Positions 34,277 through 40,200 of a stretch of DNA of 54,267 nucleotides are shown piece after piece (within the stretch, counting starts at the first letter, position 1; every line of letters begins with the position of its first letter). Made by a program: the position numbers and the translations under genes. The stretch comes from a virus (lineage: Duplodnaviria > Caudoviricetes): positions 1 through 54,267 of the IMG/VR virus record IMGVR_UViG_3300038530_001000; one strand, given 5' to 3'. The notes beneath the pieces were generated by a model, which saw nothing but the letters and a program-made list of their open reading frames with translations, was not told where the DNA came from and made no database searches.

Positions 34277-34630
34277 ATGAGCAAAATTGGAAACTATGTA
34301 TTTGAATGCGAAGAGCGAGGAGAGATGTTCTTCAATGAGGAGTCTTTGACCTATGAGTTTAGAAATCAAACCGAATGTGGACATGAAAGTGCGTCAGCCG
34401 GGAGAGTCGTTGCCGACAATACCGTGGGACGAGATGTATTGGAAGGACGCCTTCGATATACCCGTCACCGTCGACAACTATCAAAGCCGTTTAAGCGCAG
34501 CAAGAAGTTCCTACAAACGCTGGCAAGATCGGCAAACAAACGAAGAGCGAGAGTTCTACATCGGCAAGCACGACGAGAACGACAATCTTTTCGTGCGGGT
34601 CTACTGCAAAAAGGGGCCAGTGCGCGATGA
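34277..34630 (+). CDS. Hypothetical protein (MSKIGNYVFECEERGE...), overlapping the next ORF
   Basis: RBS GGAGG just after the promoter. Confidence 0.45.
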   Translation: MSKIGNYVFECEERGEMFFNEESLTYEFRNQTECGHESASAGRVVADNTVGRDVLEGRLRYTRHRRQLSKPFKRSKKFLQTLARSANKRRARVLHRQARRERQSFRAGLLQKGASAR

Positions 34631-34682
34631 AAATAACCAATCATCACAATCTTTCACAACCGATAGTTCAAGCCCTTTCTAG
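34353..34682 (+). CDS. Hypothetical, possibly DNA-binding protein
   Basis: RBS GAGGAG; PWDEM...DAFDIP...VRVY pattern. Confidence 0.65.
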   Translation: MSLEIKPNVDMKVRQPGESLPTIPWDEMYWKDAFDIPVTVDNYQSRLSAARSSYKRWQDRQTNEEREFYIGKHDENDNLFVRVYCKKGPVRDENNQSSQSFTTDSSSPF

Positions 34683-35493
34683 GGATGACTACACCAGGGG
34701 TGCCAGCCACCGATCCGTCACGCAACTAATCGACAGTCCACGCATACGCATCTTGCGAGAGCGTCACTGGGATGAGTTGACTGAGGACATCTCAGAAAAG
34801 ATGTGGAGCGTGCTAGGTACAGCAGTGCATCGTATCTTCGAGGACTACGCTGGTGACGATGTGATCAGCGAAGAGCGTTTGTTTGTTGAGGTAGATGGTT
34901 GGGTGATTAGTGGTGCCATCGATGTGCAGGATCAGGATGGCCCTATCGATTACAAATGCACCAGTGTTTGGAGTGTGATTCATGACAAGATCGAATGGGA
35001 GCTACAGCTTAACGCCTACGCATGGCTGATGCGTCACGCCAAAGGTGTGCGATCTAAATCCTTGCGGATCATTGCAGTGATGCGCGATTGGAATCGCCGT
35101 GAGGCAGAACGCAACGAAAGCTATCCACCTGCGCCAATCCAGACAATCAACGTCACTCTATGGTCAGACGAAAAGCAAGACGCATACATGGCTGAGCGTA
35201 TATCGCTGCATCAGGATGCGGAGTTTGCCGACTTCAATGACGAACCCCTACCGCCTTGCACAAACACAGAACGATGGACTCGTCCGACAACCTACGCAGC
35301 GAAAAAGAAAGCAAACAAACGTGCGTTGCGAGTCTTCGATTCGATGGAAGATGCTGAAGCATACCTGGAATCCCAGGGACTGGCAGATAGCAAGGAGCAC
35401 GAAGTAGAGGTGCGAGAAGGCGTGCATGTCAGGTGCGATCAGAACTGGTGCCGAGTTGCAGAGTTTTGCGATCAATGGAAGGAGTCCGCATGA
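34627..35493 (+). CDS. PD-(D/E)XK Cas4-like exonuclease
   Basis: SVTQL, GTAVH, E..L, SGAID, DYK, QLNAYAWL, C-terminal RC..WC....FC. Confidence 0.88.
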   Translation: MKITNHHNLSQPIVQALSRDDYTRGASHRSVTQLIDSPRIRILRERHWDELTEDISEKMWSVLGTAVHRIFEDYAGDDVISEERLFVEVDGWVISGAIDVQDQDGPIDYKCTSVWSVIHDKIEWELQLNAYAWLMRHAKGVRSKSLRIIAVMRDWNRREAERNESYPPAPIQTINVTLWSDEKQDAYMAERISLHQDAEFADFNDEPLPPCTNTERWTRPTTYAAKKKANKRALRVFDSMEDAEAYLESQGLADSKEHEVEVREGVHVRCDQNWCRVAEFCDQWKESA

Positions 35494-35771
35494 TCGAAAT
35501 GGATAAGACGGTGTACGAAAAGATGATCGGTATATGGTCTATCACAAGTATACCTAAATTGTTGATGGCACCTCGCAGTGGTGAGGTGTTTTTCAGTTGG
35601 CGTGGGGGCGATATAGCCCAGATGCCATTCAAGATGTTTGATGAAAGTGCGCCAATCGAACTGGTGGAGTACATCGAGCATCAAATAGGTAAGAAGTACG
35701 GCATCGATGCCAGGCAGTTCCGAACTGATCTGAGCGGATACCGTCGAAACCCCTTTTCTAGTCAGAACTAA
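35490..35771 (+). CDS. Hypothetical protein
   Basis: ATGA overlap; RBS AAGGAG. Confidence 0.6.
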   Translation: MIEMDKTVYEKMIGIWSITSIPKLLMAPRSGEVFFSWRGGDIAQMPFKMFDESAPIELVEYIEHQIGKKYGIDARQFRTDLSGYRRNPFSSQN

Positions 35772-35782
35772 AGGAGAATCTG

Positions 35783-36448
35783 ATGGCTGAGAAGACACTT
35801 GTGCAGGCGTTGGTCAAAGCACAATCGGAGATGGGACACGCAGTGTTCGATCAAGTGAACCCACAATACGACTCAAGGTTTGCATCACTCAAGTCTGTGA
35901 TCGATGCAGCTAAGCCTGCACTGAACGCCAACGGGATAGCTTTCATACAAAGATCCATACCGATGGAGAACGGCATTTCTGTGGAGACTGTGTTGTATGG
36001 GCACGGTGAAGAGATTGCGACTGGGCCTGTCCCGGTGCCAGCACAGAAGATCACCGCTCAAGGCTATGGGTCTGCTATGACCTATGCAAAACGATATAGT
36101 CTGGCAATGGCTGTCGGAATAGCTGCCGACGAAGATGATGATGGGGCAGCGGCAGAGGCAGAGAAACCACAGTCTGCACCGAAGAAAACAAAACCTAAGC
36201 CGATTCAGCACGAAGGCGGTGTAGAGGATTACAGCACTAAGATCGGCGCGGAAGCCTTCTTGAAAGGTTGGGTAGAGAATGAACTACCCCTGCACGATGA
36301 TCTGGCTGGCGTGTTTGCAAACAACCGTGACCCGATTACCACAATAAAAGAACATCAGCCTGAGATCTACGAAAAGATTAAGCAGGCATACAACAGCCGT
36401 AAGGCGGAAATAGAGGCAGCAAAGGAGAACAACGATGCCGAACTATGA
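35783..36448 (+). CDS. erf: ERF-family single-strand annealing protein
   Basis: ALVKAQ, NP...S.FASL, QGYGSAMTYAKRYSL...GIAADEDDDG. Confidence 0.92.
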   Translation: MAEKTLVQALVKAQSEMGHAVFDQVNPQYDSRFASLKSVIDAAKPALNANGIAFIQRSIPMENGISVETVLYGHGEEIATGPVPVPAQKITAQGYGSAMTYAKRYSLAMAVGIAADEDDDGAAAEAEKPQSAPKKTKPKPIQHEGGVEDYSTKIGAEAFLKGWVENELPLHDDLAGVFANNRDPITTIKEHQPEIYEKIKQAYNSRKAEIEAAKENNDAEL

Positions 36449-36791
36449 GTTGAAGGTTACCTCAAACGGTGGTCTGTACCCGGAGAGGAACAGGAAGAGC
36501 GACAAAGCGCCTCATTTTAAAGGGTTCGTTAACATATCTAGGGATCAAGCCAAGCATATCGCTCAGCATTTTAAGCAAGACGGTAGCCTGGATAAACTGC
36601 GGGTGACGTTAGCTGCTTGGAAAAACCAAGGCGACAACGGCGTGCAGCTATCGATACAGTCGGAGACCTATCCGCCTGATGAGGTGGCTCCCTTTGGTGA
36701 TGAGCCTCCACCGAAGCACGTTAAGATGGCAGAGACTAAGGCACCGCCTCAGGATAGCTTCGATGACTTCGAGGACGATATCCCTTTTTAG
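36435..36791 (+). CDS. ssb: Single-stranded DNA-binding protein
   Basis: K.P.FKG...LAAW core; acidic tail FDDFEDDIPF; follows erf. Confidence 0.8.
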   Translation: MPNYELKVTSNGGLYPERNRKSDKAPHFKGFVNISRDQAKHIAQHFKQDGSLDKLRVTLAAWKNQGDNGVQLSIQSETYPPDEVAPFGDEPPPKHVKMAETKAPPQDSFDDFEDDIPF

Positions 36792-36837
36792 GATCGCCTC
36801 AGAGCCATGCTGAGTTTGGAACTGAGGCGTACAAACT
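36782..36837 (+). promoter_or_regulatory. Candidate -1 programmed ribosomal frameshift signal
   Basis: Slippery C-CCU-UUU, then UAG, 6-nt spacer, 8-bp stem CGCCTCAG/CTGAGGCG; -1 frame open to 37162. Confidence 0.65.
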
Positions 36838-37162
36838 ACACAGGCGAGAGTCGAGCGACACCAGTGTTGACTCGGCTCACAGTATCGACACAACTCACCT
36901 AGAGGCCATGGTGTTCGATGTCATCGAGACCTTTGGTCGCCAGGGTGCGATCAGTGATGAGGTGAGGGACTCCTTGCAAGGGTTGTCGTATAGCTCTGTC
37001 ACTGCGCGATACAAAGCTTTGGCTGAAAAAGGTATGATTGTGTATCCAGGAGAGAGGCGCAAGGGTAAGAGCGGTAGGACGCAACGAGTGATGGTTGCTC
37101 GCACCATGATACCCAGGAAGAAGCGTGGGATGTACGAGGGTAAGTTAACTGAACGACGGTGA
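36788..37162 (+). CDS. Putative winged-helix protein; may be made as a -1 frameshift extension of SSB
   Basis: FGTEAYKLHRRESSDTS..SAHSIDTTHLEAMVFDVI...ISDEV....GLSYSSVTARYKALAEKGMI...GERRKGKSGR.QRVM; no ATG/GTG/TTG before 36908. Confidence 0.7.
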   Translation, partial: LGSPQSHAEFGTEAYKLHRRESSDTSVDSAHSIDTTHLEAMVFDVIETFGRQGAISDEVRDSLQGLSYSSVTARYKALAEKGMIVYPGERRKGKSGRTQRVMVARTMIPRKKRGMYEGKLTERR

Positions 37163-37253
37163 CTTAAAGACAGGCATACTCATAGGCATGATGATCATTG
37201 TCGGGATCTATGGGTTTGCCTTTCTTCTGGGTTGGCTGACAGGCTTATCCTAG
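37149..37253 (+). CDS. Possible 34-aa single-TM peptide (CTG start)
   Basis: GAGGG 8 nt upstream; LNDGDLKTGILIGMMIIVGIYGFAFLLGWLTGLS. Confidence 0.35.
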   Translation: MNDGDLKTGILIGMMIIVGIYGFAFLLGWLTGLS

Positions 37254-37256
37254 TAA

Positions 37257-40200
37257 CTATTCGGTGCGCCCCACGATCTCGCTGTACTTACGATTAAACC
37301 TATCGTAAGCAGCCTTCTTCATGGCCTGCAACTCCTCTTCTTCCTCTGCGTACCGCTTGGCAGCAGAGGGATTTTCGTTCGCCATGCCGCGCAACTCGCG
37401 CAGCCTCTTGTTTACTAGACGTATTTCTTTGTCTGTAGCTCGAACCATGGGTGCCATGGATATGAAGGGCTGGTTTTCTTCCAAGTAATCTAAGAAGTCT
37501 TGCCGATCTTGTATGACATCGAGTTGGTTCTCTCTTTGTAGAACCCTCGTTCTGCGCTCATAGAAATCTGTTTGGCTAGTTCTGTGATCAACCTCGCCTG
37601 CTATGCGACGATAGAACGGTATATCGTTAACCGATATGTCCTCCTCGTTAGCAAGCTTTCGGAATGCCTCTACTGTTCTCAAGCCAGTGGCCCCAGCGCC
37701 ACCTAGTGCGTAATTGAACAGATGCTGAATTTTGTCTGGGGAAAAATCCAACGCGCCTGGTACTGATTCGTTTCCACCAGTAAGACCATTCATAATCTTA
37801 GCGGCATTCTTAAAGCCTTCAAAAGTAGACTGCTTTGCGAGTTGACTAAGCGGTTGCTCTACACCGTAAGGTACTTGCTCAGAATACACCGGGGCACCAA
37901 AGAAGTTTTCGTTGGACAGTATTTCAAGCACAGGCTGACCGATTGTAGGAAATCCAGTCTTGGCAAGCATGGTCAAAAAGTCTTTGGACTCTGATATGCC
38001 AATCGGGTTGAATGAACCAAGCAATGCCTTTGTGACAAGTGTTGCCGCTTCCTCTGGCGACTTCATGCCGGACATCATCTCTTGAATGTTTGCACCCAAG
38101 ACGTGGAAAGCGTTGTATCCGTAAGGCAGAGGTATGGTGTAATAGTCCTTACCATTGTCTTTCATTATCACTATGTTTCTTTCTTTCACATAGTTAGGGA
38201 TGTTGGCGTAGAAAGACTCACCATTATCGTCTTCATCACTCATCGCCTCTGCCAAGGCAGATAGCAAAGCTCCCGATCCAACCATACTGGCGACCATGCC
38301 TTGCTTAACTCTTGACGCTCTTGGATCAAACACATTTAAGCCGCGAGCAAAGTTCATAGTGCCCTGCACCGATGCATTAAAGAACAAGTACAGGCTATTA
38401 AGTAGCTGACCTTGATCTCCTGATCTATTGAAGTTGACAGTGAGGTTCTTAGCAAGCGTTGCTGCTTTAGCTATAGCCTCATCTCTGGGGATACCGTTTG
38501 CGATAAATTCATCTCTTGCAGCCTTGAACGATGCAAATCTCACACCGTTTTCTACTGCCGCATTTGAATCCTCTACTAGGTTTAAGATCGTATCTCTAGC
38601 TTCCTTGGCCTTACCTTTGTAAGTGCCTTTAGCCATCTCGATCATGCTATCGATAGTAGCCTTTTGCTGTTCAGGTGGCCTACTGTGAAACCAATCAGCT
38701 TTTGCACCAGCCGTTATATATTCTTCATAATCCTTGCGTTGCTCATTAGTCTGCTTATCACTGTTTCTGAAGCCCCTGTAGAAAGCGCGGATTGAAGGCA
38801 GAGTGTCCTTTATGACCTTGCCGACGATGCGAGTGTCCATCGCTTTGCCTTCCGGCATACTTTGCTCGCCAATGATATTGTAAACGGCAGTCTGGATGTC
38901 TCTTGCAAAGTTACCGACCACGAACTCTGGGTTGAAAGAAGTGTTAACCGCTGACAAGAATCTGTTTACAGCCCCTAACGATTGAATAATCTTGCTGCTG
39001 TTAGACGCATCAAGGTTCAATAAAGCCTTACGAAGATTGTCATCCTTAATATCAATCGCAACCTGCTCGCCGTTAATCTTCACGCCGAACATCTCTCTGG
39101 GTAGGGACTGCCCCTCTCGCATCACAACCTTTTTGACGTACAGCCTACGCTCTGATTCTGGCAGTCCAGGCGGAATCTTTTGCACACGTTCACCCGTTGG
39201 CAGATAGGTGTACACCGACTCCAACATGCGAGTGTATTTTGGGTTGTCCTGATCGTAGACTTCCCAAGAGTTTGGGTTGGGGTTGTTCTTCGCTAAAGCA
39301 TAAAGTTTTTGACCGAACTCTTTGTTCTTCGCTGATCGAGCGATAGCCCTTTCTCTATCTGATATCACCGTTGCTAACGGAGATTCAGCAGCACTTTCTC
39401 TGCCCAAAGCCCTGCGAGTCTCTGCTCCTTCGATGCTTACTTTGCCAGAAGATCCAGAGGTGGGAGATAAGAACTGAGATGAGAAATCATCCTCTATCTC
39501 TTTGCCCTTCAGGGGCACATAGTATTTGTAAAAACCACTGAGAAGATTTTTGTCCTCTTGAGAATACAACCCGCCTTCTGTGTTTGTATCTATCGTTTTC
39601 TGAATGATCGAGTCAACTTTACTGGCAAGCTTACCCAGCACCCTTGCTCTTTGGTTGCCGCCAGACCACTCTCCAGTCTTGTCGTTCCACTTCAAATCGT
39701 ACTGATCCCTCATGCGATCTGTAACGTATTGATTTGTAAGTCTTACCTCTTCACCGTCAACAACAATGCTACCCGCGCCACCGTCAGGTATGCGATCATT
39801 GATCTGTGAGATCCGCTTGTTACGCTCTAGCGCATGTCGCAGGATAAGAAAATCATCTAGCTCTTTGATTGCCTCCTGCGTGCTTTTCTGCGTGTTCGCT
39901 GCTGCAAGTTCATCGACCAGCGGTTGCACTTCTTCCCTTTGAAAGACTCTGGCTGTTTCACCTATTTTCCCCGGTATGGATTCTTCACCTATATAGGCTG
40001 ACTCAAGTGCTGCTATTGGCTCTTGACCCAAAGCAACCCTAGCTTTGTTGATAGCCTCTTCGATCTTCTTTAGACCGATAAACTTATCAGCCACGTTGAA
40101 AATAAATCTGTCACCACGGGTCATCACGGGTGTTTCAAAGGAACTGTATTCGTTCTCAGGCAACCCCTGCTCAGCCCTCTTAACGACAGGAGGGCGCACG

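Follow-up and report, generated by a model that had tools for sequence, protein, structure and literature searches.

In tailed phages, programmed −1 ribosomal frameshifting is known mostly from tail-chaperone and capsid genes. The gpG/gpGT pair of phage lambda arises by a −1 slip near the 3′ end of the gene of a small, abundant protein, which extends a fixed fraction of it, and in the dnaX gene of Escherichia coli (tau/gamma) a shift on the heptamer A_AAA_AAG, with a hairpin about 6 nucleotides (nt) downstream, truncates the product, a stop following soon after the slip. Here we describe a candidate frameshift in a recombination/replication module of the virus record IMGVR_UViG_3300038530_001000 (hereafter the window, all 54,267 bases of it, with a completeness rating of 98%), whose source group is uncultured marine phages. 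At its centre lies the gene of a 118-amino-acid (aa) protein resembling single-stranded DNA-binding proteins (SSB-like), followed in the −1 frame by a winged-helix open reading frame (ORF) without a start codon ahead of its conserved N-terminal motif. An earlier note on this DNA, made from its letters alone, had proposed that a −1 frameshift at the SSB tail fuses the two. Our analysis strengthens this core idea, which is backed by the lack of a start in 13/13 junction variants, purifying selection, a conserved slip site and stem, and non-slippery synonymous codons in two nested lineages without the downstream gene. A programmed −1 ribosomal frameshift that yields a 242-aa SSB-like/winged-helix fusion beside the 118-aa protein is, in our judgement, likely. 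The locus comprises the following features:

36435-36791 (+): SSB-like gene, 118 aa, frame 0 (ORF list; phrog_18154 match)
36782-36788 (+): slippery heptamer C_CCU_UUU, made of the last base of an Ile codon and the tail Pro and Phe codons
36788-37162 (+): −1-frame portion of the predicted fusion (124 codons and a TGA), with UUA as the first post-slip codon
36789-36791 (+): frame-0 stop UAG directly 3′ of the slip site ("shifty stop" context), TAG in 13/13 variants
36795-36829 (+): hairpin with 5′ arm 36795-36802, loop 36803-36821, and 3′ arm 36822-36829 (RNAfold, conservation)
36815-36865 (+): conserved N-terminal motif of the winged-helix family (FGTEAYKLHRRESSDTS), ahead of any start codon and with predicted disorder
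36866-37102 (+): winged-helix domain, approximately residues 27-105 of the −1 part (model, Foldseek, profile)
36908-36910 (+): internal ATG, residue 41 of the −1 part, with the neighbouring GTG 36911; gene-caller starts of the proteins P0001 and P0002

We infer from this anatomy that most ribosomes would end at the UAG at 36789, releasing the 118-aa protein with a free ...DDIPF tip, and that a fraction would move back one base on C_CCU_UUU (36782-88), either by tandem slippage of tRNA-Pro and tRNA-Phe or by slippage of the P-site tRNA-Phe alone with UAG in the A site. The 8-base-pair (bp) hairpin 6 nt past the heptamer would promote the slip, and slipped ribosomes would decode UUA GGA UCG ... 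in the −1 frame up to the TGA at 37160. Their 242-aa product would consist of the whole SSB-like protein, a 9-residue linker, the conserved N-terminal motif, and the winged-helix domain. In the window clade, frameshifting would be the sole route to the full-length winged-helix protein, which other phages encode as a separate, self-started gene. Our best guess at its function is that a rare long form joins the abundant short one in mixed assemblies and may tether the winged-helix factor to SSB-coated DNA.

Putative slip site, −1 frame, and downstream stem

The SSB-like ORF of the window ends in GAT ATC CCT TTT TAG, and the sequence bears out the earlier reading that the heptamer at 36782-36788 directly precedes the stop. 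The open stretch of the −1 frame reaches from 36767 to 37162 (131 codons, stop to stop), and the first ATG, GTG, or TTG in it is the ATG at 36908, which comes 42 codons after CCC, again as had been noted. The product sizes given there (118 and ~242 aa) agree with ours, as the 118 aa of frame 0 and the 124 aa encoded by 36788-37159 add up to 242 aa.

The 124-aa query retrieved 10 loci from viral contigs and 17 from metagenome contigs, which together with the window make 28 sequences. The ...DDIPF-stop junction is found in 21 of these, representing 12 distinct junction sequences in two clades that are separated by a 6-nt in-frame indel in the linker, and is lacking in the other seven (L100-L106). 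A third clade, more divergent at the junction, came from a genome-contig scan and consists of L228, located on a contig of a metagenome-assembled genome (MAG) labelled Parvibaculum, and L235, a 65-kb viral contig with an identical junction. Counting these two once, there are 13 distinct junction variants in three clades; a DNA-pattern search for more lineages gave L235 only, the rest being known contigs.

None of the 13 variants has a canonical start ahead of the conserved motif of the winged-helix family, and in 12/12 variants neither ATG, GTG, TTG, CTG, nor ATH occurs between the upstream stop of the −1 frame and the FGT of this motif. Furthermore, a TGA closes the −1 frame one codon ahead of CCC in 7/12 variants, so that the frame can be entered only within CAT CCC TTY. 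The sequence ATC CCT TTY TAG is invariant in 12/12 variants, with the preceding Asp codons flipping between GAC and GAT, and the sole variable base of the slip site (T or C at the last position of the heptamer) is synonymous in both frames, encoding Phe in frame 0 and Leu in frame −1. The heptamer reads C_CCU_UUU or C_CCU_UUC in 12 of the 13 junction variants; the remaining one has A_CCU_UUU and keeps the U_UUU tetramer. C_CC.U_UU.U/C falls in the H_HH.U_UU.Y class, which ranks with the most efficient heptamers of E. coli, where the U_UU.C and U_UU.U tetramers are also shift-prone (PMC4066793).

Two further codons were considered as starts and rejected. The ATG at 36807 (frame 0) is replaced by ACG in L090 and by ATT in L099, and the L003 clade lacks it through a deletion. 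The TTG annotated as the start of P0003, which encodes the Leu of KLHRR, has CTA or TTA as its counterpart in the window, L001-L004, L091, L094, and L099, and this position is also downstream of the conserved FGT motif.

Downstream of the slip site, beyond a spacer of 6 nt, CGCCTCAG (36795-36802) pairs with CTGAGGCG (36822-36829) in a stem of 8 bp. The earlier note had pointed out this stem, and it withstands comparison with shuffled sequences in the window (RNAfold −19.4 kcal/mol, z = −2.57, with 3/200 shuffles folding as well). All 8 pairs are kept in 96/96 cells of the alignment (13 sequences, 12 distinct rows) at a constant 6-nt spacing, whereas slid-control pairings are 24-50% paired. The only changes are one C-G to U-G on one side and one compensatory C-G to G-C in L228, and loop lengths across the clades are 19, 13, and 19 nt. 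The stem codons never vary synonymously (5/5 vs. 5/21 elsewhere in the stretch; Fisher p=0.0038, from 12 non-independent sequences). Folding energy sets the hairpin apart in the window clade (z −2.6) and in the L228 clade (z −2.7). Positioned within 5-9 nt of the slip site and showing conservation with one compensatory pair, the stem would qualify as a stimulatory structure, albeit one that is weak by energy in one clade. An alignment of related loci, which the earlier note had named as a check, thus finds the slip site, the −1 frame, and the stem kept, with one compensatory pair.

Other RNA structures fared less well. A pseudoknot between the loop and downstream sequence (AGUUUG/CAAACU), raised in the earlier note, was discarded: it would have a 2-nt linker, and in the L003 clade two of the six pairs fall in an alignment gap and one more is unpaired. 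In that clade, an alternative pairing of loop and downstream sequence (CUUCGG with CCGAAG) is possible by eye. The second copy of CGCCTCAG that the note had placed near 36745 does exist (36745-36752), but its suggested role as a competing arm was dropped, as it is absent or altered in 10/11 other junction variants, close relatives included. A second hairpin at approximately 36848-36878 (13 pairs, 19 nt past the first) is strong in the window and is not predicted in L005 and L228. An Rfam search gave no match near threshold.

The start-less stretch and the two proteins

Residues 17-101 of the 124-aa sequence translated from 36788 match PHROG phrog_1123 with an E value of 2.7e-9; the 84-aa ORF from the ATG reaches only 3.6e-4. 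A protein search with the −1 part retrieved 73 homologues at E<=0.01 among 78 candidates, most of which are 95-155 aa long and have their own N-terminus. By these matches, the start-less stretch 36788-36907 is coding, and it appears as the N-terminal part of a family of free-standing proteins of ~100-150 aa. In an alignment of the window with 56 of the 73 homologues (57 rows; A2), this part of the family carries the motif FGT.P.KL.R...P.TS..AA, in which T25 and S26 never change and L17 and R19 are almost invariant. In the window, the conserved FGT motif lies entirely 5′ of the ATG at 36908.

Selection was assessed in each frame by Nei-Gojobori (NG86) dN/dS on the 39 start-less codons. The −1 frame has values of 0.03-0.21, compared with 1.3-2.5 for frame +1; in frame 0 they are 0.5-0.8 between clades and undefined or 3.8 within the window clade. 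Variable columns are distributed 16/8/25 over codon positions 1/2/3 of the −1 frame. Hence, on this codon-level evidence, purifying selection is seen in the −1 frame only. Comparisons between clades show saturation at synonymous sites (pS, the proportion of synonymous differences, is 0.64-0.86 in three pairs), and the nonsynonymous counterpart pN is 0.22-0.28 before the ATG vs. 0.19-0.20 after it in three between-clade pairs. By this measure, the start-less part and the remainder of the winged-helix protein are equally constrained.

An AlphaFold model of the −1 part, built from A2, has a mean pLDDT of 74.9 and places a winged-helix domain after a disordered segment of residues 1-26 (pLDDT <50 at residues 1-13 and 16-26). 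Residue 41, encoded by the ATG at 36908, lies inside the first long helix of the model, predicted at residues 35-48. With its helices and beta wing, the domain is modelled as a generic winged-helix fold. The top Foldseek matches are winged-helix domains (best 2dk5, E 3.5e-3; none at E<=0.001), and a profile search against PDB sequences matched the winged helix of RPC39 at 1e-4; fold, structural matches, and profile all agree with the winged-helix label of the earlier note. A curated family could not be assigned to the window's protein, for which Pfam HTH_24 stayed under the cut-off (E 0.1-0.2). Among the 57 family members, 17 match Penicillinase_R at E<=0.01 and two match Pfam RPA_C (best E 1.6e-6), to which the window's own protein has no match.

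The identity of the upstream protein is less clear-cut. It consists of a small N-terminal domain, a Pro-rich linker, and the acidic tip FDDFEDDIPF, and the alignment of its family (85 representatives at E<=0.001) ends in the consensus DDDIPF, an SSB-type tip after a disordered linker. PHROG phrog_18154, named "single strand DNA binding protein", matches with an E value of 9.3e-8, but searches for the SSB sequence family (PF00436) found no Pfam match at E<=1 and no match among PDB sequences. The model of the protein (beta-beta-alpha-beta-beta, pLDDT 81.9) has no Foldseek match on PDB at E<=0.001 and no SSB title among the 50 matches listed; in BFVD it matches mostly uncharacterised phage proteins, with one named SSB at 2.9e-3. 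Thus, of the SSB label given in the earlier note, the DDIPF tail and the PHROG name stand, and the Pfam and PDB sequence comparisons give it no backing. We call the protein SSB-like, a name that rests on the tail and the PHROG match, and its modelled structure suggests that it may be an undescribed small fold with an SSB-type tip.

Natural controls and competing explanations

Natural controls are provided by relatives of the SSB-like gene with synonymous, non-slippery tails, which read ATT CCC TTT TAG in L108 and ATT CCG TTC TAG in L114, L115, L116, and L121. In both lineages, a different, self-started gene comes after the SSB-like one. The SSB-like protein of L108 is 85% identical to that of the window (alignment A3) and forms a clade with it in the tree (100/100 support), and L114/115/116/121 form a short branch inside the unresolved L003 group. 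The slip-site codons thus appear to have been lost where the downstream winged-helix ORF is absent, in two nested lineages. The ORFs that follow the SSB-like gene in L108 (1879-2175, 98 aa) and L114 (843-1256, ~138 aa) are unrelated and have their own starts, which suggests that the position after the SSB-like gene is a site of gene replacement.

In the wider family, ordinary initiation prevails. All 70 distant viral loci (L020-L089) have a canonical start upstream of the conserved core, and an ATG is present in the four loci examined of the seven L100-L106. Upstream neighbours vary in L020-L089, and an SSB-type tail precedes the gene in 6/70 (L020/21, L076, L080, L083, and L088). In L136, the winged-helix gene has an ATG in frame 0, 3-9 nt past the SSB-like stop, with an AAGGA overlapping this stop. 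The same gene pair with ordinary coupling, in which an SSB-like protein ending in ...ESDVPF precedes a winged-helix homologue, is seen at 7916-7945 of L136 and also in L168, L173, and L225. Because an SSB-type tail precedes a self-started gene in these six loci and in the L136 group, the SSB-like/winged-helix pair recurs with ordinary initiation. The earlier note had held that homologues with their own start codon and a varying frame offset would speak against recoding; such homologues exist at a distance (70/70 of L020-L089, and L136 with its frame-0 ATG), and not in the window clade, where the objection therefore does not hold.

In 21 of 71 free-standing homologues (within P0006-P0059), Q.[SDN]LF immediately precedes the conserved GT, e.g. 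QISLFGT. This motif fits the beta-clamp-binding consensus QL[S/D]LF or QxxLF (PMC12309361). The window clade lacks Q.[SDN]LF, and the frameshift linker occupies its place. One free-standing homologue, P0017, ends in ...NIPIPF, which resembles an SSB-type IPF tip. A speculative and, in our view, rather doubtful extension of the frameshift proposal is a "hub swap", in which the winged-helix factor would be replisome-associated and, in a sub-family of its free-standing homologues, would dock on the beta clamp by an N-terminal QxSLF motif; in the window clade, covalent attachment to the SSB-like protein via recoding would have taken over from this docking, such that a fixed minority of subunits would carry the factor to single-stranded DNA while the majority keeps free DDIPF tips.

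Several observations weigh against a programmed frameshift. The SSB-like gene of L136 ends in GTC CCT TTT TAA, yet the winged-helix gene behind it has its own ATG; therefore, part of the heptamer may reflect ordinary codon choice. No in-frame SSB/winged-helix fusion was found among the 85 SSB-family representatives, leaving the fused architecture without independent precedent; nearly all of them are 54-161 aa long, and three long ones match internal stretches only. Similarly, a search for longer homologues yielded only P0074, which has a C-terminal run-on. An SSB-type tip buried inside a fusion would be functionally odd. The hairpin of the L003/L005 clade is no better than shuffled sequence (z 0.5 and −0.15), and 29/500 shuffles reach the observed stem value, so that with one compensatory pair only, support for the stem comes mostly from conservation. 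Finally, L228 and L235 have an in-frame AUC in the linker, with a canonical start absent before the motif, and an imperfect heptamer (A_CCU_UUU, from ATA CCT TTT). As this variant keeps only the U_UUU tetramer before UAG, it favours slippage of the P-site tRNA-Phe at a putative "shifty stop" (a term of Weiss et al. 1987, as cited in PMC5009743) over strict tandem slippage.

Some of these points would fit unconventional initiation in the linker, at a non-canonical start or by re-initiation after UAG, which would give a free winged-helix protein of ~115-124 aa and no fusion. The 70/70 distant homologues are free-standing with their own start, the L136 gene begins 3-9 nt past the SSB-like stop behind AAGGA, where the window keeps UAGGA, and L228 offers its linker AUC. 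However, the linker is devoid of ATG, GTG, TTG, CTG, and ATH in 12/12 variants, AGGA is not conserved (UAGCAU or UAGACU in 8/12 variants), and we know of no start-codon-independent re-initiation in bacteria. This route would also leave the invariant ATC CCT unexplained, while the control lineages changed both codons, and we regard it as improbable. A further alternative is that only an 83/84-aa protein is made, from ATG 36908 or GTG 36911, the upstream similarity being a relic of a lost N-terminus. Gene callers picked these two starts (P0001 and P0002), and a Shine-Dalgarno (SD)-like GAGG is found just upstream of ATG 36908 in the window (GAGGAG in the L003 clade). This element is missing in L001, L002, L090, L091, and L094, which have GAAGCG or GAATCG instead, and the counterpart of the ATG, itself inside a predicted helix, is TTG in L228. 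Since the short product would also lose invariant family residues, and pN upstream of the ATG is near that downstream despite saturated synonymous sites, we consider this explanation very unlikely.

We give next to no credence to a non-translational frame break, i.e. a T-run indel that arose in assembly or sequencing, or RNA polymerase slippage that adds a base. The junction does contain a run of five T, and an indel error there had been named in the earlier note as a way in which the proposal could fail. The break is, however, common to all 13 junction variants, which come from many assemblies. Contigs of four other runs have no insertion or deletion at the junction, and three contigs (749-nt DNA, 310-nt DNA, and 268-nt from an RNA library) bridge it with 0 gaps, bearing in mind that contigs drop rare variants and that low-level transcript slippage could escape such a comparison. 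The CCCTTTC variants have only three T, a run too short for transcriptional slippage to be likely, and with an inserted T, the DDIPF tip would be buried throughout the protein population. Only small parts are present as contigs in the RNA runs X19 and X20, which speak neither for nor against expression. Programmed frameshifting remains the explanation that we favour.

Gene module and comparison with known systems

The SSB-like gene is part of an early module on the + strand, in which it follows a PD-(D/E)XK exonuclease and an ERF-type annealing protein, the 3′ end of the ERF gene and the start of the SSB-like gene sharing 14 nt:

34627-35493 (+): PD-(D/E)XK exonuclease of the same recombination module (Pfam PDDEXK_1 7.7e-6; PHROG phrog_2139 5.1e-51)
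35783-36448 (+): ERF-type single-strand annealing protein (Pfam ERF 1e-20; PHROG phrog_155 2e-38)

A 21-codon hydrophobic ORF (MMIIVGIYGFAFLLGWLTGLS) at 37188-37253 (+) lies between the winged-helix gene and a convergent gene for a protein of 1879 aa. Within 36300-37400, no promoter-like sites were found on either strand and no terminator-like sites on the + strand. In L228, an annealing protein (447-1166) is encoded upstream of the SSB-like gene; it resembles the ERF protein of the window in its C-terminal stretch and differs from it in its N-terminal part, which suggests that domains have been shuffled around an SSB-like/winged-helix cassette that stayed constant. Relatives among cultured phages were not found by blastn of 34600-37300 or by tblastn of the winged-helix part and P0021 against phages, and the SSB-like protein has weak matches only (best 3e-2).

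The earlier note knew of no described case, and we likewise found no SSB frameshift in the literature searched, including look-ups in the text of the recoding review PMC5009743, of PMC4066793, and of the PRFect paper (PMC10885494), whose supplementary tables may list cases. If true, the frameshift proposed here would widen the known uses of phage −1 frameshifting to a conserved case in a recombination/replication module, and would represent an SSB-type protein that is extended past its partner-binding tip. It would also correct annotation, as gene callers now give a truncated 83-113-aa protein. Furthermore, the small cassette, with its natural slippery and non-slippery synonymous variants and a natural compensatory stem variant, would be a testable system that could show how an SSB tip and an attached DNA-binding domain work together.

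Several known systems share parts of this architecture. The insertion sequence (IS) elements of the IS3 family resemble the locus in that a −1 slip fuses two overlapping ORFs (OrfA/OrfAB), one of which has a DNA-binding helix-turn-helix, and in that the downstream ORF lacks an independent start; IS elements include cases with U_UU.Y tetramers and with U_UU.U_UU.C heptamers (PMC4066793). In contrast to OrfA/OrfAB, no transposable element is involved here, and the DNA-binding domain is the downstream rather than the upstream partner. The combination of an ssDNA-binding-type protein with a C-terminal winged helix in the predicted fusion recalls RPA32, and RPA_C is matched by two of the 57 family members. 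This likeness is an analogy of architecture only, as the window's protein has no RPA_C match and its SSB-like N-terminal domain is not matched to an OB fold. With dnaX, the locus shares a replication-associated protein, a slippery heptamer, and a hairpin ~6 nt downstream; unlike in dnaX, the shift would bypass a stop and add 124 residues, and the heptamer is C_CCU_UUY instead of A_AAA_AAG.

Finally, as in lambda gpG/gpGT, a −1 slip near the 3′ end of a gene would add a second domain, the arrangement is conserved across related phages, and a logic of short and long forms that co-assemble is plausible. The differences from lambda lie in the module, which serves recombination and replication (exonuclease, ERF, and SSB-like protein) and not tail assembly; in the slip itself, which would take place on the last two codons, directly before the stop; and in the extension, a winged-helix domain for which other phages have a separate gene. 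Thus, the mechanism is of a known kind; what appears to be new is its setting among the genes and that it would extend a protein beyond an SSB-type tip.

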